Assembly: GCA_002863065.1 (NCBI GenBank)
Contig: PKDL01000144.1
Location: 1 to 42,472, forward strand
Reading direction: 5' to 3'
From: Pseudomonadota bacterium
GTDB taxonomy: Bacteria; Myxococcota_A; UBA9042; GCA-2863065
Length of the DNA: 42,472 bases
Positions within the stretch are counted from its first letter, which is position 1. Each line of letters opens with the position of its first letter. This document shows positions 7,641-42,472 of this stretch, in pieces. The notes under the pieces are model-generated. The model saw nothing but the letters and a program-made list of their open reading frames with translations. It was not told the DNA's origin and ran no database searches. The position numbers were made by a program, and so were the translations under genes.

Positions 7641-8248
7641 AGCGTCTCTCCGTGCGAGGAAGCGCTCAACTTGTCAACGGTGAGTTGGAAGCACACATGA
7701 CGCCACGCCGGATTTGGTGTGGTGAGCTCAATTGAGATATTCATCGGTCCAAGACTCGCACGAGGTGCTTTGATATCGAAGGTATGCCAGCCACGATACT
7801 CATCCGTCATCCGAACATTCCAGACTCGATTGCCATTTATCTTGAGTGTTGCCGAGATATGCGCTCCGTTGCGGGCGGAATCTAGTAATCCGATGTATCC
7901 AGACACTCGAGAGGCAGCAGATACTTTACGGTAGGTGATTTGGTTCGCCCCTCCTTGGCGCGGATGAATCCAAGTACACACACGCTTATCGCTTACTCCC
8001 TCTGACTGCACACTTCCGATGTATGCGCCGGCCCATTCCCAAGGGCGCTCTCCACATTGATAGCGTGTACCGACCCAGGCTGAGCAACGCTTACCTCCGC
8101 TCAGGATGCTAGCGTTCGGAAGCCCCGTTGTTGCAGTCCATTCGGGTTGCGCTTTTGAGAGTGGCGGTCTTGGCGGAACTGTTAGCACATACCACTGCAT
8201 AGCGCCGACAAGCGTTACAGCAATCAAGACCGGACCAACCGTTTGCAT
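7637..8248 (-). CDS. Membrane-anchored periplasmic beta-sandwich protein (possible carbohydrate-binding fold)
   Basis: N-terminal TM segment and a Trp/Cys-containing beta-rich domain (CTWIHP, GYIGLLDSA, WRHVCF); 4-nt overlap with the downstream GT-C-like gene. Confidence 0.6.
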   Translation of the reverse strand: MQTVGPVLIAVTLVGAMQWYVLTVPPRPPLSKAQPEWTATTGLPNASILSGGKRCSAWVGTRYQCGERPWEWAGAYIGSVQSEGVSDKRVCTWIHPRQGGANQITYRKVSAASRVSGYIGLLDSARNGAHISATLKINGNRVWNVRMTDEYRGWHTFDIKAPRASLGPMNISIELTTPNPAWRHVCFQLTVDKLSASSHGETL

Positions 8249-8978: not shown

Positions 8979-11537
8979 ATGACCAAGCGGATGTTAATCT
9001 CGGTCGATGAGGAAGAAAGCCGGGTTGCAATTATCGACTCTCGGCGACTCGAAAATTTAGAAATTGAAGCCAAAGGCGGTGAAGGCCGCCGCGGAAATAT
9101 CTACAAAGGGGTGGTTCATAAAGTAGAGCCTAGCCTTCAAGCGGCATTCATTGACTTCGGGGAAGAAAAACAGGGGTTCCTGCCACTTTCAGAGGTGCAT
9201 CGCCGTTTGTGGCCAAAAGGTATTACTGACAAACGACCAGACATCAGCTTGCTTCTCAAGGAAAAGCAGGAGCTGATGGTGCAGGTTGTGAAGGACGAAA
9301 TCGGTACGAAGGGTGCGACCCTTACTACCTTCGTGTCGTTGCCGTCGCGTTACCTCATCCTCATGCCTGAGAGCGACAAATCGGGCATCAGCCGGCGTCT
9401 CGGCGATACTGAACGCCGCCGACTCAAGGAAGTCATAGCTGCTATTAGTGTGCCTGATGGCTTTGGGGTCATTATTCGAACTGCGGGTCAGCAGCAGCGT
9501 CCGATGGAGCTAAAAAAAGATCTGCTGTATCTGACGAAACTTTATGAGTCGATTGAGTCCAACTTCTCTCGTCGGCAGGGTGCTGGTCTCATTTACAAAG
9601 ACCGGTCTCACGCTGTGCGATTCATTCGGGATTATTTTACGGATGATGTTGATGAGATCTGGTGCAACAACCGTAGCACGCTCAAAGAGATAGGTGACTT
9701 CATGAGTGTTCTCATGCCGGTCGCGCGTCAGACCTTGCGCCTATACGAGGGCACTGCACCACTCTTTGTAAAATTCGCAGTGGAAGACCAGGTTGAAAGC
9801 GTGTTTGCTCGCGAGGTGCCGTTACCAAACGGTGGATCGATCGTGATCGATCAAACCGAGGCGCTCGTTGCGGTTGATGTCAACTCAGGAAAGGTCAAGG
9901 GACAAGATATTGAGGAAACCGCCCTCAAAACTAACCTTGAAGCAGCACATGAAGTGGCCCGCCAGGTGAAAATTCGCGACATGGGTGGATTGATAGTGGT
10001 GGACTTCATCGACATGCGTGAACGAAAGAATGTTCGCCACGTCGAGACTGAGTTGCGGAAAGCTTTCACGGACGACAAGTCGAAAATCAAATTCGGCCGA
10101 ATCAGCCAATTTGGCTTGATGGAGCTTTCGCGACAGCGCCTTCGAAAAAGTTTGATGACCCAGATCACTCGGCGTTGTGAAGCCTGCGATGGCACTGGAC
10201 AAGTACGAGCGCCCGCATCTGCCGGTCTATCCTTGTTACGTCGTATCGAGGAAGCATGTCTGCGTGGGAACGTGAAGTATATTCGCGCGACAACATCGGT
10301 AGGAATAGCAAACCTTCTGCTCAACCGTCGTCGCGGCGAGCTGAGCGCAGTTGAGCAAAAGATGGGAACAATCGTAGAGGTTGTAGGCCACAAAGACATG
10401 CCAGCAAACTTGGTAGCTCTTGATGTGGTCGTACTGCGGGGTGGCCGCTCTGCGCCACAGCGCATATATCAGCTTCTGGACTTGATTCGGAATAAAGTCA
10501 TCCGGAAGGATACGAGCCCGCTACCCCGACCGGAAGAAGGCCTCGAGAAGCTAGAGCTAGACCACGGTGCTATCTATCGCATGATTGCCGCACGTGATGA
10601 AGAGATGGCGAAAGCAGAGGAGCTTTCGACGGACTTCGAATTTTCGCCTCAGGAACCGGACTTGGAATCGGATGAAGCATCTGAAGAGTCAGACGCTACT
10701 AATAAGCGGCGTAGGCGTCGCCGCCGGCGTCGAAAAAAGTCAGACGCCGACTATGGAGATGGTGGCGACAGTCAAGTGTCCGTGAGGGGGGCTGATGCTG
10801 GCGATGATAATGATGCGGCCACCGATGATGAGGACGGCGACTCTGAACATGAGCTATCTCCTGAAGAAAAAGAGGAGATGGCGCGCCAAGACGAGCGCCG
10901 ACGAGGTGGCTTTGTCGGTTGGATGAAGCGGATCTTTGGTGGTGAGGGTGACGATGCGCAGCCGGACTACACCGACGTCTCTGATGCTGCTATTGGCGCA
11001 ATAGAGCCTCCTGCGACTTCATCGGACGACAGCGATGTCGCAAGTACTGAGGTGGAATCCGTATCAACAAAGGCGTCAGCTGAGGAGGGTACACCGTCGG
11101 AAGACTCATCGGCGAATAGCGGGGAGGAACAGGTTGATGGAGAAAAGCGCCGTCGCCGTCGCCGTCGTCGTCGCCGTAAGCCAGCGGGCCCGAAAACTTC
11201 CGCTGACACCGATGCAGACAATGCATCGGATACTGACATCGCAGCAGCAGACTCTGCTGAGGCGAGCTCAGTCGAAGACAATGTTCGGAGGCCAGCGGAA
11301 GGTAAATCAACGGATGCTGCGCAAGAATCGAAGGCAGCTCGCCCGCGACGTAAACCACGTCGTACGCCGAAGTCGAGGGCTGTCAAACCCGCAGAATCGG
11401 AGGCAGATGCGTTGGCTCGTGACGCTGCGCGGGCAGTAGCTGCGTTGGAGTCGGCCGCAAGCGCATCGGGGAAAAGTCAACCGTCTGAACCGGCTGCCGC
11501 CGAACCACCTCCGATCCCGACAGACTCAGAGGGGTAG
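8979..11537 (+). CDS. rne: Ribonuclease E (Rne/Rng family) with a long disordered C terminus
   Basis: GNIYKG, SLQAAFIDFG, GFLPLSE, IDQTEALVAVDVNSG, GGLIVVDFIDM, ISQFGLMELSRQR and CEACDGTG (Zn link); AAGGAG RBS. Confidence 0.93.
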   Translation: MTKRMLISVDEEESRVAIIDSRRLENLEIEAKGGEGRRGNIYKGVVHKVEPSLQAAFIDFGEEKQGFLPLSEVHRRLWPKGITDKRPDISLLLKEKQELMVQVVKDEIGTKGATLTTFVSLPSRYLILMPESDKSGISRRLGDTERRRLKEVIAAISVPDGFGVIIRTAGQQQRPMELKKDLLYLTKLYESIESNFSRRQGAGLIYKDRSHAVRFIRDYFTDDVDEIWCNNRSTLKEIGDFMSVLMPVARQTLRLYEGTAPLFVKFAVEDQVESVFAREVPLPNGGSIVIDQTEALVAVDVNSGKVKGQDIEETALKTNLEAAHEVARQVKIRDMGGLIVVDFIDMRERKNVRHVETELRKAFTDDKSKIKFGRISQFGLMELSRQRLRKSLMTQITRRCEACDGTGQVRAPASAGLSLLRRIEEACLRGNVKYIRATTSVGIANLLLNRRRGELSAVEQKMGTIVEVVGHKDMPANLVALDVVVLRGGRSAPQRIYQLLDLIRNKVIRKDTSPLPRPEEGLEKLELDHGAIYRMIAARDEEMAKAEELSTDFEFSPQEPDLESDEASEESDATNKRRRRRRRRRKKSDADYGDGGDSQVSVRGADAGDDNDAATDDEDGDSEHELSPEEKEEMARQDERRRGGFVGWMKRIFGGEGDDAQPDYTDVSDAAIGAIEPPATSSDDSDVASTEVESVSTKASAEEGTPSEDSSANSGEEQVDGEKRRRRRRRRRRKPAGPKTSADTDADNASDTDIAAADSAEASSVEDNVRRPAEGKSTDAAQESKAARPRRKPRRTPKSRAVKPAESEADALARDAARAVAALESAASASGKSQPSEPAAAEPPPIPTDSEG

Positions 11538-29108: not shown

Positions 29109-32100
29109 GTGAATAGCGCGCTCTTGGATCCGCAAAGCGCATCGGAAGGGATACCACTTGTGAACGCTGCCCGTTCATTGGCACTCATGCTCGTCTTAGC
29201 TTCCTTGAGCTCGTGTCCAGATGACACCGTGGTTTACCAGGACTTTTACCTGTCGGTTACAAGCGAAGTACCTGCCGATGGCCTATCGATCGACCGGCTA
29301 GTACTCACTTTTCGGAACCACGATTCTGGAGTCTTAGGCCTCTTTGGGCAGTTCGACAGTGACGTTCTTAGATACGAGGTAAGTCTACCCACCGTGGCTG
29401 ATATTACGAACTCAGCGTACGTTGTGCAGATCAATTCTGGCGAAATTATACGGGGAGATGTACTCGCAGTTATATGGGGACTTCATGCCAATGAAGATCG
29501 CCCCCTTGTCTCCTGGAGTGGAAGCCTCGATCTCGATAGTAATGGCGTAATCTCGGTGCGCTTGGACGCTATTGCACCGACTTGTGACGTCGATGGCGAT
29601 GGCCTTTTAGATTGCAGTATCGAGGGGTGTTGTTCGTCGGCGGATACCATACTTGAAGATTGTGATGACAGTAACGCGGCATCTCATCCCCTTGCAGCAG
29701 TACCAGCCTGTATTCCTTGCGAGCCACAGACGGATTACAATTGTGACGGTCAGATCGATCGTTGTCCCGATCGAGATGGTGACAATGCTGCCGATTGTGA
29801 TGCCACGGTTGATTGTGACCCAGACGATAGCTCTGTCCATACCTCGGCCGAGGAAATCTGTGATGGTAAGGACAACGACTGCAATGGTGTAACCGATGAA
29901 AAATTTACTGACACAGACGCAGATGGGACCAAAGATTGCGTTGACGATGATATTGATGGCGATGGTGTCGCCAACGATATGGACTGTGCTCCGTTGGACG
30001 GCGCGACATATCCCGGGGCGACCGAGTTGTGTGATGGTGTAGATAACGACTGTAATGATGCCACGGACGACAGCCCAGGGTGCGTGGAGTGGGAGAATGA
30101 CTGGGACGGTGACGGTATCCTTCCCGGGCAAGATTGTAACAACTACGATTCCAAAACTTTTCCCGGGTCTACCTACGCCGGATGTTGCATTCCTGATACG
30201 TCACTCAGCCCCGAAGCGGTGTTGCTGGCGTGCGATTTTGACTGTGATGGGAATGCCAATCTGTGCTCCGACGACGATGATGATGGGGATGGCTATTCGA
30301 ACACTGTCGACTGCCCTGGAGGCCAGCAGGACCCAACCATATACCCAGGCGCACCAGAAAAATGTGGTGATGGTATTGACCAGGACTGTCTCTTTGGAGA
30401 CCAAGACTGCGAGTCAATTGTTGATGTAGATGGTGACCAATACGGTGCGGAGGTGGACTGTGATGATAGCGATCCGACCGTTTATCCGAATGCTCCAGAG
30501 TTGTGTGACGGCAAAGATAATAACTGCAATTCATTCATCGATGATGGAAATCCAGAAGCCAGTATTGATTGTTTGAATCCAGATCCTGAACGACAGTTTG
30601 GCTTATGCGCCTTGGCTGAGAACCTGGGTACGACAGTTTGCGCCCAGAATACTGATAATCCCGCTCTACCGGTGTGGGCATCCGAGCAGGTAAACGGCGA
30701 AGGGCAAGCCGTTATCTGTATTGGTTACTACCCGCCACCGTTAGCAGAGACCCTTTGCGATAATCAGGATGAAGATTGTGATGGTCAGGTTGATGAAGAC
30801 TTTGAGTGGGTGGAGATACACTCTGCATCCGACGGGTCTAATATTGTTTTGGCGAAGGGAGACAGTTGCGGCACGGGTGCATGCCTCGGTGGCAATGTCG
30901 TGTGCCATCCTGCTGCGCTAAGTCGAGATATCTCTGGGCAACTTACCTGCGACAGTCTGTCCAACCAATCAAGTGAAAATAGCGGCGGCGGTCCGGGGGT
31001 ATCGTTCTGTGATGGTATCGATAATGACTGTGATGGTGTTGTAGATGGACACTCACTGCCCTTAGCTCAGACGACTTGCAAGCAGCTAGGTGTCTGTGGC
31101 GCCGAACCGGAACTAGTTCAGACTGCATGCGTGGATGGTGTATGGCAATGCGGATACACCATGGATGCATACGACGGCGAAACGGAGCTGCGTTGCGATG
31201 GGCTGGATAATGACTGCGATGGGAATGTTGATGAGGACTTGTCATGGGAGAACGTGCCGTTCGGCGCTCCTTGCGATGGGACTGGGGAATGTGGTCCGGG
31301 CATCGTAACGTGTAATAGCGAGCAGCAAGCGGTCTGCTCGACCAATCCGTCGGGTCCGCAAGCGGAGGCGCAGTCTGAGTTATGTGACGAAAAAGACAAT
31401 GACTGCGATGGGCTTACAGACGAAGGGCAATACTGGGAATGGAATGGAATTCAATATCCCTTGAATAGCCTGTGTGAAGGAATCGGAGAATGCGGGGTTG
31501 GTGTTGTCGAATGTTCGGACTCTACGCTTCTACCAGTATGTTCCACAAACCTAGACGGTACCGCGTCAGAGTCGTCCTCCGAGGTATGCGATGGCAAAGA
31601 CAACGACTGTGACGGCCTGACGGATGACGATCTTTTCTACGGAGCGCAGCCCGTGGGTGCGCTTTGCGATGGCATTGGTGAATGTGGTGCTGGAATCGTT
31701 GAATGCGCGGTGGATGGGAGCCTATCAGCCACGTGTTCTACGAATGTCAATGGAGCTTCGTCCTCCGATACTGTGGAACTTTGCGATGGACTAGACAATG
31801 ACTGCGATGGAGTCACCGACGAAGGGTTCGCTTGGACCGACCCAGTAAGTAATACGCAGATACCGTTGAGCTCGCCTTGTGATGGAATCGGTGAATGCGA
31901 CCTTGGAGTGGTGGTTTGCGCACCCGGCGACAGCACCATTGCGGTGTGCAGTACGAACACAGATGGTACCCAGCCTCAAAGCGATGCGGAGGTATGCGAT
32001 GGCCTGGACAATGACTGCGACGGTCAAACAGATAATGGATTAGGATGGTTTGATCCGGAGCTAAATGCGGTTGTTCCATTAGGATCACCTTGTGATGGTA

Positions 32101-35100
32101 TTGGGCAATGCGGTACGGGCATCGTCGAGTGTGCGAATGACGGCTCCAATGTCGCGACCTGTTCTACCAATCCAAATGGGAGTGACTACATATTTCAGGT
32201 TGAGATTTGTAATAACCTCGATGACGACTGCGATGGGCTCACTGATGATGTAGTCGGTACGGCAACGCCAGGAGTGACGTGCACACTAAGTGGCGCTTGC
32301 AATCCTGCCAATGTGACAGCGACTTGCATAGCAGGTAACTGGTCTTGCGATTACAGCATAGTCGTAGGCTACGAGGTATCGGAGCAAAGCTGCGATGGCA
32401 TAGATAACGACTGCGATGGACTTACCGACGAAGCCGGCTTGGTGGTGCCGACTGAATGCGACAAGCCAGGGGTTTGCTCAGGAGCCTCGCCTCAGTGCAA
32501 TGGCGTTTCTGGCTGGTCATGTGGCTTTGATGCGCTTCCAAACTATGCCCCCAGCGAGCAAGGAGCAGCGTTCTGCGATGGCGTAGATAACGACTGCGAC
32601 GGTTTTACCGATGAACATTTCCCGTCACTCGGGCAGGTGTGCACTTCAGGGCAGTCCGGGTGTACTGCCTCTGGCGTCACGATTTGTACGGCAGACGCGA
32701 CCAGTACTGTTTGCGATGCAGAAGGACAACCAGCGGGTACGCCCTGTAATGATGGACAGCTTTGCACATTCGGAGATGTGTGTTCGGGGGGATATAACTC
32801 CACATGTAATGGCACCGACTACTCGTGTGTTAGTGATGAACTTAGTTGCACGACTGACACATGTCTGGGTGATGGCAGTTGCGAGTATATTTTACAGCCT
32901 GATGCCTGTCTGATCGGCGGGGTATGTCGAAGTCCTGGTAGCTTGAATCCTCTCAACGACTGCCAGTTATGCGACCCAGAAAATCCTGAAGTATGGTCTG
33001 ATGTCGTAACAACGACAGCGTGTAATGACGGGAATGCTTGCACGACAGGCGACAATTGTGACGGAGCTGGACAGTGTCTTGGCACTGGAGGAATTGATTG
33101 CAGCGATGGTTTGCAATGCACTCAGGACAGTTGCGTGGAAGCAGGTGTTGGTTTTGAGTGCGAAAATACGCTGAAGGTTGGAGCGTGTCTTATCGATGGT
33201 GAGTGTTATGCGACTGGCGTGCAAAATCCTAGCAATCCTTGCCAAGTCTGCGACGCAAGCACCCAGACCGGTGCTTGGGTTGACCGTACGGATGGAACGG
33301 CATGTACGGACAATAACAAATGTACTCTCAACGACTCTTGCCAATCTGGTGTCTGCGCTGGGATCACGAATCCGTGTGATGACAACAACACATGTACAGA
33401 CGATAGCTGCGACCCGGGTGCAGCGTCACTCAATGGTTGTGTCCAAACAGATAATTCAGCCACCTGCGCTGATGACGGACTTCCGTGTACCGATGATATA
33501 TGCAGTTCGGGGGGATGTACTCATCCGCTCAAAAATAACCGGTGTTTGATCGAGGGCACTTGCTACGTCAAAGATGCGGGTAATCCCGACAATGTGTGTC
33601 AGACGTGCGACGCCGACAGTCCTCTTTCCTGGAGTCCGACCAGTCAGGGACAGGGATGTGATGATGGACTCGTATGCACCTCGGTTACTGAATGTGACGG
33701 CAGTGGATTGTGTGAAGCCATCACTACCCTCAACTGCGATGATGGAAATGAGTGCACGGCAGATTCATGTTCTGAACCCAGCGGATGCGTGAATGCGCCG
33801 CTAGATGGAACGCAATGTCAGGATGATGGACTGTTGTGTACTGCTGACCAGTGTTCTGAAGGTTCATGTGAGCACATTCCCACCTTCGGCACGTGCGCTA
33901 TCGATGGACAATGTTATTTGTTAGGGGCTGGGAACCCTACCAACGTTTGCCAGCGCTGCACTCCAGCACAATCTCAGTCGGATTGGTCGCCCGTAGGAAA
34001 TGGACTCATGTGTGATGCTGATAGCGATGGCTGCACCCCTGACGCGTGCCAGGACGGTCTTTGTGTTGCGGGTCCAACCCTCGATTGCAGCGCCCTAGAT
34101 ACGGAATGCACTCTTGGGGTGTGTATCTCTCAGTCAACTTTTAATGGTGAATGCAGCCTGGAAAATCGACCGAACGGTACGGCGTGTTCTGACGACGGCT
34201 TGGGATGTACCGCTGACCAGTGTCTAGAAGGGGTGTGCGACAGCTCTGAAGTGAGTTCAGGTTGCTTAATTGGCGGTGCATGCGTTCCTGAAGACACTGC
34301 CTCTCCAACGAATGCCTGTAAGTCATGTCAGAATTCCGTCGACCCGGCGGCGTACGCAAATAGTCCGATTGGTACGGACTGCAGTGACGATACCTTTCAG
34401 TGCACCTCAGATACCTGTGATGGCTCGGGCAATTGCACTGAATCAATCAATCCTGGGACCTGTCTCATTGATAGCAGCTGCTACGCACAAGGTGCAGTGA
34501 GTCCCTCAGGTTGCTCATCATGCCAGCCTAGTATCAGCGAAACTGCGTGGACCCTGTTACCCAATGCTACCGCATGTACCGATTCGGACGGTTTGAGTTG
34601 CACGGACGGTCAGTGCAATGGGACAGACCAATGCATCCCTACCTTAGCACCCGATGCATGCCTTATTGGAGGAATATGCTTTAGCGAGAATGCCATTTCT
34701 TCATCGAACCCATGTCAAGCGTGTCAACCCAGCCTTAGTATAAATACATTCACCGACGTACCTGATAATACGACCTGTCCATCAGATGGAAACGAATGCA
34801 CGCTGGATGTTTGCATATCCGGTGTGTGTAATACTCCTGCTGCCGATGGTTCATCATGCGGTGACGGGAGTGACTGTCTAACGAATACGTGCCAAACGGG
34901 CTTTTGTGACCTGTCTTCTCTTCCGGATGGCAGCTCATGTACAGATGACGGTAACGTCTGTACCAGCGATGCGTGCCAGGCCGGCGCATGTACCCACCCT
35001 ATAGTGGCCAATGGTACGGCGTGTCCAGATGACGGAGATTTGTGCACCAACGACCAATGTGAGTCGGGCGTTTGCCAACATCCTGCGAAATGTGTAGACG

Positions 35101-35366
35101 ACGGCTTAGCCTGTACGCTTGAGTCCTGCGACGCAGGGTCCTGCAGCACTATACTGGAATCAGATACTTGCCTGATTGACGGACTCTGTACCAACGATGG
35201 TACGGAGGATCCGGGTCCAGCATGTCAGTATTGCATTGCCGCAGTATCCAATTCGTCTTGGACAAGCTGGACGGGCGAGTCGAGCTCAGACAGCAATTGT
35301 GGAGACGGGATAGATAATGACTGTGATGGACTAACTGATGTTGAGGATGCCGAGTGTAACCCTTGA
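29109..35366 (+). CDS. Giant Cys-rich repeat surface (lipo)protein with MopE-like CDGxDNDCDG repeats and Dictyostelium-type CxDGxxCTxDxC repeats
   Basis: 2085 aa; possible lipobox LSSC near the N terminus; many E(I/L/V)CDGxDNDCDGxTD, DxDGDG and C(D/N)DGxxCTxDxC units. True start is probably 29160 or 29187. Confidence 0.88.
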   Translation: MNSALLDPQSASEGIPLVNAARSLALMLVLASLSSCPDDTVVYQDFYLSVTSEVPADGLSIDRLVLTFRNHDSGVLGLFGQFDSDVLRYEVSLPTVADITNSAYVVQINSGEIIRGDVLAVIWGLHANEDRPLVSWSGSLDLDSNGVISVRLDAIAPTCDVDGDGLLDCSIEGCCSSADTILEDCDDSNAASHPLAAVPACIPCEPQTDYNCDGQIDRCPDRDGDNAADCDATVDCDPDDSSVHTSAEEICDGKDNDCNGVTDEKFTDTDADGTKDCVDDDIDGDGVANDMDCAPLDGATYPGATELCDGVDNDCNDATDDSPGCVEWENDWDGDGILPGQDCNNYDSKTFPGSTYAGCCIPDTSLSPEAVLLACDFDCDGNANLCSDDDDDGDGYSNTVDCPGGQQDPTIYPGAPEKCGDGIDQDCLFGDQDCESIVDVDGDQYGAEVDCDDSDPTVYPNAPELCDGKDNNCNSFIDDGNPEASIDCLNPDPERQFGLCALAENLGTTVCAQNTDNPALPVWASEQVNGEGQAVICIGYYPPPLAETLCDNQDEDCDGQVDEDFEWVEIHSASDGSNIVLAKGDSCGTGACLGGNVVCHPAALSRDISGQLTCDSLSNQSSENSGGGPGVSFCDGIDNDCDGVVDGHSLPLAQTTCKQLGVCGAEPELVQTACVDGVWQCGYTMDAYDGETELRCDGLDNDCDGNVDEDLSWENVPFGAPCDGTGECGPGIVTCNSEQQAVCSTNPSGPQAEAQSELCDEKDNDCDGLTDEGQYWEWNGIQYPLNSLCEGIGECGVGVVECSDSTLLPVCSTNLDGTASESSSEVCDGKDNDCDGLTDDDLFYGAQPVGALCDGIGECGAGIVECAVDGSLSATCSTNVNGASSSDTVELCDGLDNDCDGVTDEGFAWTDPVSNTQIPLSSPCDGIGECDLGVVVCAPGDSTIAVCSTNTDGTQPQSDAEVCDGLDNDCDGQTDNGLGWFDPELNAVVPLGSPCDGIGQCGTGIVECANDGSNVATCSTNPNGSDYIFQVEICNNLDDDCDGLTDDVVGTATPGVTCTLSGACNPANVTATCIAGNWSCDYSIVVGYEVSEQSCDGIDNDCDGLTDEAGLVVPTECDKPGVCSGASPQCNGVSGWSCGFDALPNYAPSEQGAAFCDGVDNDCDGFTDEHFPSLGQVCTSGQSGCTASGVTICTADATSTVCDAEGQPAGTPCNDGQLCTFGDVCSGGYNSTCNGTDYSCVSDELSCTTDTCLGDGSCEYILQPDACLIGGVCRSPGSLNPLNDCQLCDPENPEVWSDVVTTTACNDGNACTTGDNCDGAGQCLGTGGIDCSDGLQCTQDSCVEAGVGFECENTLKVGACLIDGECYATGVQNPSNPCQVCDASTQTGAWVDRTDGTACTDNNKCTLNDSCQSGVCAGITNPCDDNNTCTDDSCDPGAASLNGCVQTDNSATCADDGLPCTDDICSSGGCTHPLKNNRCLIEGTCYVKDAGNPDNVCQTCDADSPLSWSPTSQGQGCDDGLVCTSVTECDGSGLCEAITTLNCDDGNECTADSCSEPSGCVNAPLDGTQCQDDGLLCTADQCSEGSCEHIPTFGTCAIDGQCYLLGAGNPTNVCQRCTPAQSQSDWSPVGNGLMCDADSDGCTPDACQDGLCVAGPTLDCSALDTECTLGVCISQSTFNGECSLENRPNGTACSDDGLGCTADQCLEGVCDSSEVSSGCLIGGACVPEDTASPTNACKSCQNSVDPAAYANSPIGTDCSDDTFQCTSDTCDGSGNCTESINPGTCLIDSSCYAQGAVSPSGCSSCQPSISETAWTLLPNATACTDSDGLSCTDGQCNGTDQCIPTLAPDACLIGGICFSENAISSSNPCQACQPSLSINTFTDVPDNTTCPSDGNECTLDVCISGVCNTPAADGSSCGDGSDCLTNTCQTGFCDLSSLPDGSSCTDDGNVCTSDACQAGACTHPIVANGTACPDDGDLCTNDQCESGVCQHPAKCVDDGLACTLESCDAGSCSTILESDTCLIDGLCTNDGTEDPGPACQYCIAAVSNSSWTSWTGESSSDSNCGDGIDNDCDGLTDVEDAECNP

Positions 35367-35460: not shown

Positions 35461-36981
35461 TCACCCGAGCTTCTCTTTCAGCGCAGCAACGTCGACATCA
35501 TATTTTTTCATGAGCTTGCGAAAGTATTTCCGATCGATCTCGGCTTCCTTTGCTGCATGGGAAATATTTGAGTTGTTACGCCGGAGTAGATTCAACACAT
35601 AATCGCGTTCGAACGTACCGATCCATTCTTCTTTCGCTTCCTTGAACGTCTTTGCAAGACCCAGCGGCATGGCCGTCGACTCTCCGGATGCTTCATCGAT
35701 CTGAAGTGGCACGCCGTGGGGGGTGGGAGGACTAACAGAGCTCGCTTCAAGGTTCGCTGAGACCTCCGTCGTTGCTTGTTCGTTCACCGCGCGCGTTGTT
35801 ATGAAACCAATACCTGAAATGTGTTCCGGTAGGTCTTCAGGTTGTATGTACTCCGTTTCGGCGAAGCTGCAGGCTCTCTCCACGACATTGACCAACTCAC
35901 GGACATTGCCTGGCCACCGGTAATTCATCATGCAGTCGAGTGCATCTCGTGAGATACCTTTGACTCGAACACGCCCAGTACTCTCTTGGTTGAAGCTACT
36001 CTTTCTCAGGAAGTGCTTCACGAGCAGCGGTATATCTTCCTTGCGGTCGCGCAGTGGCGCGAGCACCAGTCGAACCACGCTAAGGCGGTAAAACAAGTCC
36101 TCTCGAAAGCGGCCATGCTTGACCTCTTCCTCAAGGTTGCGGTTCGTTGCAGCCACAACCCGAACGTCGATGCGGATCGGCTTGTTTGCACCGACGCGGC
36201 GTACCTCGCGTTGTTCAAGTGCGCGCAGTAACTTGGGTTGCAGGTCTAGGTTTAGTTCGCCCAATTCATCCAGAAAAATGGTACCGCCTTGGGCCATTTC
36301 AAATAGCCCTTGGCGAGCCATTATAGCTCCAGTAAAGCTACCTTTTTCGTGCCCGAATAGCTCAGACTCGATGAGGTTCTCTGGAACTGCACCGCAATCG
36401 AAGACTACGAAGGGGCCACGGTTGCGTTTACTGAACTGGTGGATTGCGCGGGCTACGACTTCTTTACCCGTTCCAGTCTCACCTTCGATAACTACGGTTA
36501 CTCCGGTGGGCGCAATCTTTTCCAAAATGCCGAAAATTTCACGCATCCGGACTGACTTACCCACAATGCTGCCGAAAGCTTCACGGTTGGAGGGCAGTAC
36601 CTCAACACGCTCATCTAATGACTGGAATCGGATGTCGGTCTTGCCCACGGTAACGGTACAGCCTGGCTTCAAGAAGGCTTCTTTGATGCGCACTCGATTT
36701 ACGAAGGTACCATTTGTGGAGTCTAAGTCTTGAAGCAGATAGTGGTCGTCATCTTGGTATATTCGGCAGTGGTAGCGAGACGCAGTGTCATCATCGATGA
36801 CGAGGTCGTTATCCTCCATAGCCCCTACGGCAATATTATTCTGGTCGAAAATGTATTCGGAGCTTTTGCCGTCATCCTTCTCGATAACGAGCTTACACTT
36901 TCGGAGGTGTATTGCGGTGGGTCGCCCGGAAATATAGGCGATCTTGGTCGGGGGGATATAGTCCGGAAACTTGCTACTCAC
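35461..36981 (-). CDS. FHA-domain sigma54-dependent enhancer-binding protein (FHA-AAA-Fis HTH)
   Basis: FHA (SRYHC, DLDSTNGTFVN), GETGTGKE, ESELFGHEKGSFTGA, FLDELGE, FREDLFYRL, WPGNVREL and a C-terminal HTH. Confidence 0.95.
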   Translation of the reverse strand: MSSKFPDYIPPTKIAYISGRPTAIHLRKCKLVIEKDDGKSSEYIFDQNNIAVGAMEDNDLVIDDDTASRYHCRIYQDDDHYLLQDLDSTNGTFVNRVRIKEAFLKPGCTVTVGKTDIRFQSLDERVEVLPSNREAFGSIVGKSVRMREIFGILEKIAPTGVTVVIEGETGTGKEVVARAIHQFSKRNRGPFVVFDCGAVPENLIESELFGHEKGSFTGAIMARQGLFEMAQGGTIFLDELGELNLDLQPKLLRALEQREVRRVGANKPIRIDVRVVAATNRNLEEEVKHGRFREDLFYRLSVVRLVLAPLRDRKEDIPLLVKHFLRKSSFNQESTGRVRVKGISRDALDCMMNYRWPGNVRELVNVVERACSFAETEYIQPEDLPEHISGIGFITTRAVNEQATTEVSANLEASSVSPPTPHGVPLQIDEASGESTAMPLGLAKTFKEAKEEWIGTFERDYVLNLLRRNNSNISHAAKEAEIDRKYFRKLMKKYDVDVAALKEKLG

Positions 36982-40584: not shown

Positions 40585-41406
40585 ATGATCGCAGTTAATT
40601 TCGTCGCGAGTAAACTTCGTTTTGGATTACTTATTTTTATGTCATGCCTAGTCGCTGCACCGGCCGTGCTTGCCGAAACACCATCATCAGAGACGATGCT
40701 TATTCAAGATGAGGAACGTCATCCGCGACGTTATAGAGTAGTACGTCGTCGACGCGTGGTTACCGTGAGAACTCCTCCTGCTAGGCGTGTACGCCCGGTA
40801 GCATTCGTTGCGCAAAGCGATACGGGGCCAACACCGTTATTGGGTGTCGGTATTCGTATAAGCGGGATTGCGCTTGATGGTGAGAAGTTGAGTCTGGACG
40901 ACTTCGAGAATCCCGTCATGGGTGGAGTTGGCGTGCACTTTAGGACCAAGCTGACACGTCGCTGGGGGCTCGAGCTTAGCTTTGATTATCTCCGCCGAGA
41001 TGGTGACCAATCACGATACGTACAGGAGACGATGCCGCTGATGCTCAGTGGTATGTTCCATGTATTTCCCGACAGTCCTATTGATTTATATGCACTCGCC
41101 GGCGTGGGCGTCCACTTCACAAATTTATCATATGCAGAAGGTCTCTTTGAACATCATGCGTTGGAATTTGCCGGGCAGCTTGGTGCAGGTGTACAGGTTC
41201 GCTTTGGGGACCACTTTGCTATTTACGCTGACGTGCGCTTTGTAACTGTCTACAAAAACCTAGGGTCTGTTGATCGGGTGGCTAACGACTGCCTATCGAG
41301 TCGTGCAGGCGCTACAGGGTTTTGTGGAGGTCTCAACAATCTAGACCCGACAGATAAATGGAACATTGGGGCGCAGTTTCAAGCGGGTGCTACCTATTAC
41401 TTCTAG
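40585..41406 (+). CDS. Outer-membrane beta-barrel protein (OmpA/OmpW-like, probably 8 strands)
   Basis: Signal peptide, amphipathic strands (WGLELSFDY, LYALAGVG, GQLGAGVQV) and terminal GATYYF. Confidence 0.8.
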   Translation: MIAVNFVASKLRFGLLIFMSCLVAAPAVLAETPSSETMLIQDEERHPRRYRVVRRRRVVTVRTPPARRVRPVAFVAQSDTGPTPLLGVGIRISGIALDGEKLSLDDFENPVMGGVGVHFRTKLTRRWGLELSFDYLRRDGDQSRYVQETMPLMLSGMFHVFPDSPIDLYALAGVGVHFTNLSYAEGLFEHHALEFAGQLGAGVQVRFGDHFAIYADVRFVTVYKNLGSVDRVANDCLSSRAGATGFCGGLNNLDPTDKWNIGAQFQAGATYYF

Positions 41407-41819
41407 GGTGCGATGTCGCGCCATGAAAGCGAATGCGGCACGCAACCATCCCGCGCAGATGGGCAATCTGGGCGCTGGTATTCGCTCGGATACGCGCGCT
41501 GGTAATTATGTATATAGTGATCTATCCGGTTGGCGATTCTGGTGAGTTTTGCGTTGGCGACAGCTACTCAGAGGCCGTTCGAATCTTTCATTTCTTCATT
41601 GTACGCTGTGGCATATCGCGGTGCGCATTTTTACGATCGGAAACTGTGGCAAGCCACTGCGGGGTGTACACAAGCTAGACACCCGCCGAAGTGCTGTTCA
41701 ATTAATGAACGATGTTCATTTTTCATCACATTCACAAGGACTTAGGCTTTTGTTCTCACCGCTTGTGCACAGGATGTGGACAAAAAAAAAGAAAGTGCAC
41801 ACAGATACGACAGGTGCGG

Positions 41820-41842
41820 TATCAAATGATTTCAATGGGTTA
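41820..41842. promoter_or_regulatory. IHF-like binding site
   Basis: TATCAAATGATTTCAATGGGTTA holds two overlapping near-matches to WATCAANNNNTTR and lies immediately upstream of a -24 box. Confidence 0.45.
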
Positions 41843-41847
41843 TGTTT

Positions 41848-41862
41848 TGGCACGGTCCATGT
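41848..41862 (+). promoter_or_regulatory. Sigma54-like -24/-12 promoter; predicted +1 at about 41873-41874
   Basis: TGGCACG-GTCC-ATGT: a perfect -24 box and GG-N10-GT instead of GG-N10-GC. The predicted start coincides with the first helix of the structured region. Confidence 0.55.
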
Positions 41863-41872
41863 AAAGGGAAGT

Positions 41873-42472
41873 GGCCGAGCGCTGCAACGGCAGCCGGCGA
41901 GCGGACTAGCTCGCCTAACGCAGATTTTTCTGCTGACAAGCGAGTATCTAGTGAAAAAACGCTGCAAGGCGACATTCAACTAGATCAAATAGTCCAGGAA
42001 TCGACGAAGGGCGCTAGGTCTGAGAAGACAGTAGCTCTAGACACAATGACAAACCCTGAGGTCCAATCGCGACTAAGACGCCCGCACGCGGAGACGCTGC
42101 GGTTGAGTTGGTCGGAGAAAAAGGGCGAGAGTGGTGGTTAGGAGACTAACCTAATTATGCTCTGTAAACCTTCGTCGGAGCACGGCGCTCAAGGCGCTCG
42201 CGCTGTTGAAATACACAGTGCACGCGACTGAGTGACGTGTTTGTCTCAGAGAGCAGGCCGCAACCGTAAGGATACGGGCTGTGAATCTGAGAAATCCCAT
42301 GAGTGGGAGCGGTCTGAAAAACGACCGCATAGGCGGCACAGAAACCCCGCGAGGGTGTGAGAAACACCGAGGCGGGTGCCTTCGAGACTGGTAATCTCGA
42401 AGCGAGTCCAGCGCAAGCGAGACAGACTGTGCCGATGCACGACGCGCCAACGAGCTTGCCTCGAAGGCGACG
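41873..42472 (+). ncRNA. Candidate large, highly structured non-coding RNA (at least 600 nt, 3' end outside the window, family not identified)
   Basis: More than a dozen helices, long-range pairings (41876-82/42194-200, 42001-10/42169-78, 42334-41/42427-34), GNRA loops that read correctly only on + and a loop pseudoknot GGACTA/TAGTCC; no credible CDS. Confidence 0.75.

Follow-up and report, generated by a model that had tools for sequence, protein, structure and literature searches.

A 3.69-kb structured RNA behind a sigma-54-type promoter in a marine myxobacterium, with relatives in Myxococcota and Planctomycetota

The last 600 nt (positions 41873–42472, + strand) of a 42,472-nt DNA stretch from a marine myxobacterium were singled out, in a preliminary description made from the sequence alone, as a large structured RNA of at least 600 nt. 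We call the whole stretch the window; it is the entire contig C4, one of 578 contigs in the genome, and it terminates within the RNA. We conclude that the flagged 600 nt are the 5′ end of one non-coding RNA (ncRNA) of ~3.69 kb, which is transcribed independently and runs from a sigma-54-type promoter to an intrinsic terminator. The RNA is folded along its entire length, is rich in GNRA and UUCG loops, and keeps its helices by compensatory change, so that the fold of a very large RNA is under selection. It belongs to a family that is not present in Rfam 15. Thus, the RNA is indeed large and on the + strand as first described, and it is several times longer than the part that lies in the window.

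The preliminary description had proposed extending the contig to find the 3′ end. The final 123 nt of C4 recur without mismatch, in reverse complement, at the end of contig C152 (locus L003), on which the RNA continues along the minus strand from 11269 to ~8190, where we found a terminator. In the joined sequence, whose numbering continues that of the window, the RNA spans ~41870 to ~45555. An independent public contig (L068, 3598 nt) spans the junction, matching joined 41925–45521 end to end at 97% identity, and a full-length homolog (L070, 3637 nt) aligns with joined 41888–45524 at 72% identity; parts of the RNA are also covered by contigs L062 (99.9%), L080 (97.8%) and L077 (99.4%). Contigs L058, L069 and L070 start at ~41886–41889, no more than 20 nt from the predicted start of the RNA, with joined 41886 as the 5′-most position, and the 3′ ends of L062, L068, L070 and L080 fall at joined 45516–45524, at the foot of the terminator hairpin. 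Up to ~45450 the base composition is distinctive, with T at 0.12–0.21 and purines at 0.54–0.62, as compared to T at 0.26–0.31 in the flanking genes. The RNA is single-copy in the source genome. An internally repetitive array was considered and dropped, since self-comparison of the RNA gave only one 29-nt repeat.

Directly 5′ of the first helix lies TTGGCACGGTCCATGTA (41847–41863), a sigma-54-type −24/−12 promoter-like element that reads TGGCAC-GGTCC-ATGT on the + strand (41848–41862) and has a perfect −24 half (TGGCAC, 41848–41853). The pattern GGCAC-N5-NTG(C/T) is present exactly once in 14 of 21 homologous loci, 818–996 nt upstream of the conserved core motif described below, and the −12 half in those 14 loci is TTGC or CTGC at a constant distance. 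Five of the remaining seven loci are too short upstream; the other two, L054 and L071, are long enough, and L071 carries a TTGA variant. The promoter element also occurs in genomes G002, G003 and G005, as well as in L071. The rpoN gene (PF04552) was found in four of the five carrier genomes searched (G000, G002, G231 and G233; not G230). Two inverted repeats of the form TGT(T/A)CA-N5-T(G/A)(A/G)AC(G/A) are located ~150–200 nt upstream of the promoter: TGTTCA-N5-TGAACG (41695–41711, ~150 nt upstream) and TGTACA-N5-TAGACA (41665–41681), the latter with a putative function. These repeats recur in L071 as TGT(T/A)CA-N5-TGAACA, and TGTTCA-N5-TGAACA palindromes lie upstream of the RNA in G002 and at locus G003a. 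The repeat at 41695–41711 is a candidate site for an enhancer-binding protein, and transcription of the RNA probably depends on sigma-54 together with a dedicated activator. At the other end of the unit, a terminator scan identified a 9-bp hairpin with seven G-C pairs followed by TTTTTGTTT (L003 8218–8197, minus strand); this intrinsic terminator is kept in L071 and L069.

The predicted folding energy of 41873–42472 was −255.9 kcal/mol, far below that of 100 dinucleotide shuffles (−204.8 ± 6.1; z = −8.38 on the + strand); the reverse strand gave z = −6.33. By inspection, the helices listed in the preliminary description are present in the sequence at the positions given there. We mapped its 22 helices (118 pairs, trimmed at their own overlaps) onto an L-INS-i alignment, A1, of window positions 41865–42472 with six long-form homologs (seven rows from ~5 lineages, the L068 row being 97% identical to the window). 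Over 753 cells, 80.5% were paired, as compared to 34.2–39.9% when the 3′ partners were slid by 1–3 columns. Changes on both sides occurred in 51 of the 118 pairs, as compared to 17–24 in the slid controls, and the covariation score was 0.326, as compared to 0.077–0.100. RNAalifold applied to the same piece predicted 130 pairs, 68 of them compensatory, and took in most of the helices first listed.

Three long-range helices had been proposed to nest the local hairpins into domains, and two of these are conserved. The helix 42334–41/42427–34, which closes a domain at 42334–42434 (+ strand), was 100% paired in all seven rows, with five sequence variants and compensatory changes in 5 of 8 pairs. 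The helix 42001–10/42169–78, which RNAalifold predicts independently, closes a domain at 42001–42178 (+ strand) and was 87% paired with four compensatory pairs. The third, 41876/42194, was rejected: only 35.7% of its cells were paired in A1, and none of five pairs formed in L071. The domain at 42001–42178 holds the elements 42070–114 and 42136–51. Positions 42082–102, including the inner GAGA hairpin, were 87.5% paired with seven compensatory pairs; 42136–51 has three compensatory pairs, and its loop remains a GNRA loop (GAGA, GCGA, GTAA or GCAA) in six of seven rows as the stem covaries. Helices 42309–28, 42354–68 and 42264–71 were 100% paired in A1. The three 5′ hairpins (41881–94, 41896–915 and 41920–33; 41881–41933, + strand) were 87–95% paired, the last of them with two compensatory pairs. 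Other helices are weak or lineage-specific, namely 42018–29 (53.6% paired), the TGAA/TTCA step of 41946–85 (55%), and 42200–21, 42228–49 and 42411–18 (66–71%).

The remainder of the RNA is structured in the same manner. In 300-nt segments across joined 41701–45600 (30 shuffles each), z ranged from −0.55 to −5.63 and was ≤ −2 in 10 of 13 segments, as compared to −1.25 to +1.33 in eight flanking coding segments. RNAalifold predicted 214 pairs in the middle piece (joined 42473–43715), with 91.6% of cells paired and 118 compensatory pairs (26–36 in shifted controls), and 336 pairs in the 3′ piece (joined 43716–45557), with 94.9% of cells paired and 157 compensatory pairs (21–36 in shifted controls). 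The alignment energy of the 3′ piece was −372 kcal/mol, and −100 kcal/mol when its columns were shuffled. Across the entire RNA, hairpins with a GNRA tetraloop and a stem of at least 4 bp numbered 22 on the + strand and none on the − strand, as compared to 2.6 ± 1.5 (maximum 8) in shuffles. We conclude that the RNA strand is the + strand, in agreement with the initial statement that the GNRA loops fit this strand only. The most enriched 6-mer was CTTCGG, the structural cUUCGg, which occurred 39 times as compared to 5.7 expected (14 family members).

We found no sign that the RNA encodes protein. Mismatches to L070 were spread evenly over position modulo three (342/346/354; 1042 in total), and 19 of 20 insertions or deletions were not multiples of three; mismatches to L068 were distributed 34/41/30. 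The RNA strand has 29 open reading frames (ORFs) of ≥25 aa, none of which was maintained, open and in the same frame, across all five diverged homologs, and the longest + strand ORF within 41873–42472 is at most 99 aa. With no codon periodicity and no conserved ORF, we rejected a coding or dual-function RNA; codon-type conservation had been named at the outset as a finding that would speak against a structured RNA. A 263-aa ORF runs antisense to the RNA (L003 10141–10932, + strand), has no Pfam match, and is accounted for by the paucity of A on that strand. In L058, too, there is an antisense ORF, of 509 aa and not conserved. Gene callers may label such antisense ORFs as hypothetical proteins.

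Rfam 15 comprises 4227 models, including OLE, GOLLD, ROOL, HEARO, raiA, group I and II introns, RNase P, tmRNA, 6S, and small- and large-subunit ribosomal RNA (rRNA). At the gathering score, no family matched in the flagged stretch and none matched in 16 homologous loci. At E ≤ 1, there were no matches in L003, which holds the remaining 3.1 kb of the RNA, or in eight homolog loci. Positions 41400–42472 searched at E ≤ 10 gave only two chance-level matches to short small-RNA (sRNA) models (E = 4.2 and 8.2). The sole Rfam match in the window was a tRNA gene at 1192–1264 (− strand; 77 bits). We also found neither a group II domain V nor a reverse transcriptase (RT) ORF downstream, either of which would have removed the novelty: no intron model matched, and the next gene belongs to the TIGR04551 family. 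The fold, the covariation, and the lack of a coding signal and of an Rfam match support the suggestion of a large functional ncRNA that may be new.

Relatives of the RNA could not be found by direct nucleotide comparison. BLASTN of the 3.5-kb continuation against 40 relatives gave no matches because the family is too diverged, and an initial locus search with the 561-aa protein encoded downstream found no relatives; homologs came via synteny and then via a motif. Orthologous loci in G002 and G003 have the outer-membrane barrel gene, the palindromes, the TGGCAC promoter and a purine-rich, ORF-free stretch of ~1 kb. A strict pattern for a 27-nt hairpin motif that these share had six matches, spread over 4 of the 107 genomes from the class, and a reversed control had none. 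A relaxed motif matched eight stretches in species-representative genomes (four Myxococcales-type and four Planctomycetota metagenome-assembled genomes) and 41 metagenomic contigs, and all 49 loci share the family's composition upstream of the motif.

The core common to these loci consists of three helices, CC(U/C)C...GGCG...CGCC...G(A/G)GG, after which comes a hairpin whose loop, GAACCNAAUAG, does not vary. In 33 non-redundant sequences, 97.4% of the core's cells were paired, as compared to 32–49% in slid controls, with 82 compensatory cells. Two stem positions that the search pattern had left free formed standard pairs in 31 of 33 and 32 of 33 sequences (four and three pair types, respectively), and covariation extends to a fourth helix of longer range that surrounds the core. 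Across the two phyla, 25 core columns show no variation, whereas the helices on either side covary freely. A covariance model, R1, built from the core matched 10 of 151 Myxococcota genomes (eight at E ≤ 1.4e-10, the source genome included) and 11 of 151 Planctomycetota genomes (10 at E ≤ 4.1e-11, including two starting genomes). Thus, about 5–7% of genomes carry the family in a sample of two phyla with 151 genomes each, and the new matches share the family composition. Homologs had been expected in Myxococcota; the family is not confined to that phylum.

R1 matched the RNA itself twice, at C152 8640–8785 (E = 5.7e-20) and 10104–10231 (E = 2.4e-14). Both core copies are located downstream of the flagged 600 nt, outside the window. 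We also compared the RNA to an nhmmer profile built from four ~1-kb units. Profile positions 1–55, comprising the promoter and first hairpin at the start of the short form, matched joined 41846–41894 (+ strand) weakly (E = 0.007). Profile 465–568 matched 42279–42378 (+ strand; E = 1e-8), a module shared with the ~1-kb forms that includes hairpins 42295–308, 42309–28 and 42354–68 and is the most conserved block among long forms (45% invariant columns). Profile 612–840 matched joined 43235–43612, and profile 168–843 matched joined 44247–45049 (E = 1e-24). Given this map and the two R1 matches, we conclude that the long form contains a partial internal duplication of the unit, together with lineage-specific insertions and a ~480-nt 3′ extension. 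Five other searched long forms of the clade (L070, L058, L085, L071 and L079) have the same architecture. The flagged 600 nt accordingly consist of the family's 5′ hairpins, a lineage-specific domain (~41915–42280) and one conserved module.

The forms that carry the core in the two phyla are ~1 kb or 3.4–3.7 kb long. Several builds were observed: ~1-kb units, two units in tandem, a unit into which 2.4 kb is inserted, and, as here, RNAs of 3.5–3.7 kb with the core present twice. Metagenome contig L061 (1–2049) joins two complete ~1-kb units of 73% identity in head-to-tail order, and no promoter-like element separates them. In three 3.36-kb contigs (L047, L049 and L076), a short unit is split at profile ~385/~404 by an insertion of ~2.4 kb, at about 330–2790 in coordinates that place the core motif on the + strand; the insertion is 67% G+C, A-poor and without any ORF over 300 aa. 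The family thus has a deeply conserved core and an expandable periphery. We found no description of a large Myxococcota or Planctomycetota RNA in the literature searched, parts of which were available as excerpts, so that a prior description is not fully excluded; the available part of 10.1101/2024.10.03.616574 has no bearing on this RNA.

The RNA is present in RNA libraries. Of the 31-mers sampled from the part on C152, 57–92% were contained in each of 20 metatranscriptome runs, which come from 13 marine, seawater or aquatic studies. Contigs of four runs, from four studies, were placed on L003 5000–11392; they cover the region from 8209–8226 to the contig end, mostly at ≥99% identity, and are colinear with the DNA, with no joints found. 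No contig from the four runs lay on L003 5000–8208, where the downstream genes are located, which is not evidence of absence. The stops at 8209–8226 are at most a weak hint of the RNA end, and in X1 the end of the contig at 8209 abuts sequencing-adapter letters.

Taking these data together, the explanation we favour, with some reservation, is that this ~3.69-kb promoter-to-terminator ncRNA of a new family acts in trans as a folded, architectural molecule. An enhancer-binding protein would switch on the sigma-54 promoter, so that the RNA is made on demand; the RNA might then work in trans, either as a protein scaffold or by self-association, and, with its core duplicated, the long form would present twice whatever surface the core offers. 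Several points weigh against this reading. The scaffold role is our best guess, by analogy with other large ornate RNAs, and synteny does not point to any functional partner that is consistent between the two phyla. In the promoter, the −12 half is degenerate, with TGT for TGC (ATGT) here and TTGA in L071, and start-site mapping is limited to the contigs of RNA runs, which makes the promoter's start a predicted one. The terminator scan found four terminator-like sites, as compared to 3.6 ± 1.8 in shuffles, a count no better than chance, so that only the position and conservation of the L003 8218–8197 site carry weight. Library contigs give neither level, strand nor ends, and are therefore to be read as presence in RNA libraries only. 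Lastly, the slid controls on A1 favour the structure, since the structure came from the window's own sequence, and the shuffle test, in which none of 500 shuffles reached the covariation score of 0.326, is inflated by the relatedness of the rows.

A bolder version of the architectural reading is, in our judgement, possible and distinctly more speculative. The family may be a class of giant RNAs, including the largest known structured non-ribosomal bacterial RNA (~3.7 kb, longer than 23S rRNA), that grew by duplicating and expanding an ancient ~1-kb core common to Myxococcota and Planctomycetota. The short form could be a self-associating particle, made of RNA only or of RNA and protein, with the tandem and duplicated forms as covalently linked assemblies, and the whole would amount to a sigma-54-switched RNA machine common in ocean metatranscriptomes. 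A quite different role, which we regard as unlikely, is that of a sigma-54-induced decoy that ties up a global RNA-binding regulator or another abundant protein, as CsrB/RsmZ, CrcZ or 6S RNA do. Some decoy sRNAs, such as CrcZ, are sigma-54-dependent; a promoter of inducible type precedes the RNA, which assembles readily from RNA libraries, and duplication of the core would add binding sites. However, we found no high-copy short motif: the top 6-mers are the structural CTTCGG and GNRA-type words, and AGGA, at 20 occurrences in 3.7 kb, is within the expectation for a purine-rich composition (by base-frequency arithmetic, not shuffles). Moreover, the long-range helices and domain closures conserved by compensation would be needless for a string of sites. 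Somewhat less probable still is a ribozyme or catalytic ribonucleoprotein core, with the invariant GAACCNAAUAG loop and the GGAAGACC strand in an active or ligand-binding site. The 25 invariant core columns amid covarying helices are a pattern typical of functional sites, and the size and multi-domain build of the RNA resemble those of large ribozymes; yet no Rfam 15 ribozyme family matched at E ≤ 1, the uninterrupted RNA contigs give no sign of self-cleavage or splicing, and the genomic context suggests no substrate.

To two further explanations we assign very little probability. The RNA could be a cis-acting leader or antisense regulator of a neighbour such as the downstream TIGR04551 gene, since it lies upstream of, and codirectional with, the TIGR04551 ortholog in G000, G002 and G003a. 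However, a strong terminator separates the RNA from that gene, two other genes intervene in G002, and the downstream genes are unrelated at G003b, in G005 and at planctomycete loci, the second G003 copy being located elsewhere in its genome. We reasoned that varying downstream genes and a terminator argue against cis-regulation. The patchy occurrence of the family, in about 5–7% of sampled genomes of two distant phyla, could reflect horizontal transfer, and together with the 2.4-kb insertion in some members could point to part of a mobile or selfish element (an intron, retroelement, prophage or plasmid RNA). Against this, the RNA is single-copy in the source genome and syntenic within the family, no Rfam intron or mobile-RNA family matched, and no RT or transposase adjoins it; blastn found no match among 50,697 phage and 72,556 plasmid records, and the core pattern had no match in viral contigs. 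We give almost no credence to the view that there is no functional RNA here, the region being instead an artefact of composition, the remains of a decayed gene or an assembly error. A U-poor, purine-rich region does yield chance ORFs on the opposite strand, and three relatives have a giant repeat-protein gene at the equivalent place. However, tblastn of those giant proteins against the region gave a best E of 0.94, on which basis we rejected a decayed giant repeat-protein gene; independent contigs reproduce both the sequence and the junction, and covariation, strand-specific GNRA loops and presence in RNA libraries are not expected of an artefact.

Among known RNAs, OLE (ornate, large, extremophilic) of Firmicutes is likewise a bacterial ncRNA that is large, folds intricately, has many conserved helices and is expressed independently. 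OLE is ~600 nt, is reported to be abundant and to act in a ribonucleoprotein, and was of unknown role at its discovery. In contrast, the RNA described here has no cmscan match, is 1–3.7 kb long, occurs in other phyla and has a sigma-54-type promoter; no oapA-like gene was seen beside it, although none was looked for. With 23S rRNA (~2.9 kb), it shares its size class, a purine-rich, U-poor composition, nested domains with long-range closure, and many GNRA and UUCG loops. It differs in matching no rRNA model at E ≤ 1, in its sigma-54-type promoter, in lying in no rRNA operon, and in being found in about 5–7% of sampled genomes. The sigma-54-dependent sRNAs CrcZ, Qrr and GlmY are 100–400 nt long and have short repeated or antisense motifs. 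Like them, the present gene lies behind a −24/−12 promoter-like element with candidate activator sites upstream; unlike them, its RNA, 10–30 times larger, has a global fold that is conserved and lacks any enriched short motif. GOLLD and ROOL, which are shorter than 1 kb and in many cases associated with prophages or tRNAs, are also among the largest ornate bacterial ncRNAs, multi-domain and tetraloop-rich. The RNA described here differs from both in having no Rfam match, in being chromosomal, syntenic and single-copy with no phage match, and in reaching 3.7 kb. According to the available part of PMC12286853, GOLLD and ROOL form RNA-only homo-oligomers, and on that account self-association is a reasonable idea for the present family with its repeated core duplications. 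Since every Rfam test failed, we conclude that the RNA is a member of none of OLE, GOLLD, ROOL and 23S rRNA. We rate it as a new family that departs from the known large RNAs in its size (up to 3.7 kb), module duplication, sigma-54-type promoter and two-phylum distribution.

Bacterial RNAs of this large, ornate kind are, to our knowledge, rare, and so far every discovery of one has given rise to a new area of RNA research. The family would widen the size range of structured non-ribosomal bacterial RNAs approximately fourfold, and it offers a case of RNA architecture evolving by module duplication and expansion, which is usually discussed for rRNA. It would also link a giant RNA to sigma-54 signalling, and it spans two phyla noted for their complex cell biology. 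Since nearly identical sequence is assembled from RNA libraries of 13 marine or aquatic studies, material and data already exist, and the ~1-kb short form is within the size range of large bacterial RNAs solved by cryo-EM, as reported in the available part of PMC12286853.

The upstream neighbour of the RNA is a gene for an outer-membrane beta-barrel protein (40585–41406, + strand; Pfam OMP_b-brl). By tblastn, its orthologs lie just upstream of the RNA at loci L026 and L028, and they are syntenic in G002 and G003a. The 561-aa protein encoded downstream has no Pfam domain and scores 289 bits with TIGR04551, just below the 300-bit cut-off. The order beta-barrel gene, RNA and then, zero to two genes later, TIGR04551 is found in G000, G002 and G003a. 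Further upstream in the window, an FHA-domain sigma-54 activator gene (35461–36981, − strand; Pfam Sigma54_activat and FHA) is a candidate regulator of the RNA promoter. This activator lies 4–5 kb upstream of the RNA in G000 and G002; the G002 ortholog (L026 1891–3381, ~4.4 kb upstream) is 82% identical, as compared to 46–63% for other neighbours. In G003a, no ortholog turned up in the 5.8 kb preceding the RNA. We regard regulation of the RNA promoter by the FHA activator as a lead only.

Elsewhere the surroundings differ, and no downstream gene is common to the whole family. The second copy in G003 (G003b) is at another locus, and the copy in G005 has different neighbours, with repeats and then a convergent gene downstream. 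Directly 3′ of the short-form RNA there are two to three direct repeats of ~100–200 nt, at L037 ~1700–1960 (G003b) and L032 ~1750–2160 (G005). In one planctomycete clade, the RNA lies between bipA/typA and kynureninase, followed by a PF04199 cyclase (kynurenine-formamidase-like); this order, the cyclase included, is conserved in L038, L039, L041, L045, L055, L067, L074 and L086, among others. The giant proteins of the three relatives (L029 in G006, L030 in G004 and L031 in G007; >3536, >1058 and >1832 aa, respectively) have aspartate-rich, TSP3-like repeats and a MYXO-CTERM-like tail. Their ORF is directly upstream of the TIGR04551 ortholog in L029 and L030, the place that the RNA occupies in G000, and ~4 kb upstream in L031. 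A 2085-aa ORF lies upstream of the activator gene in the window (29109–35366, + strand).

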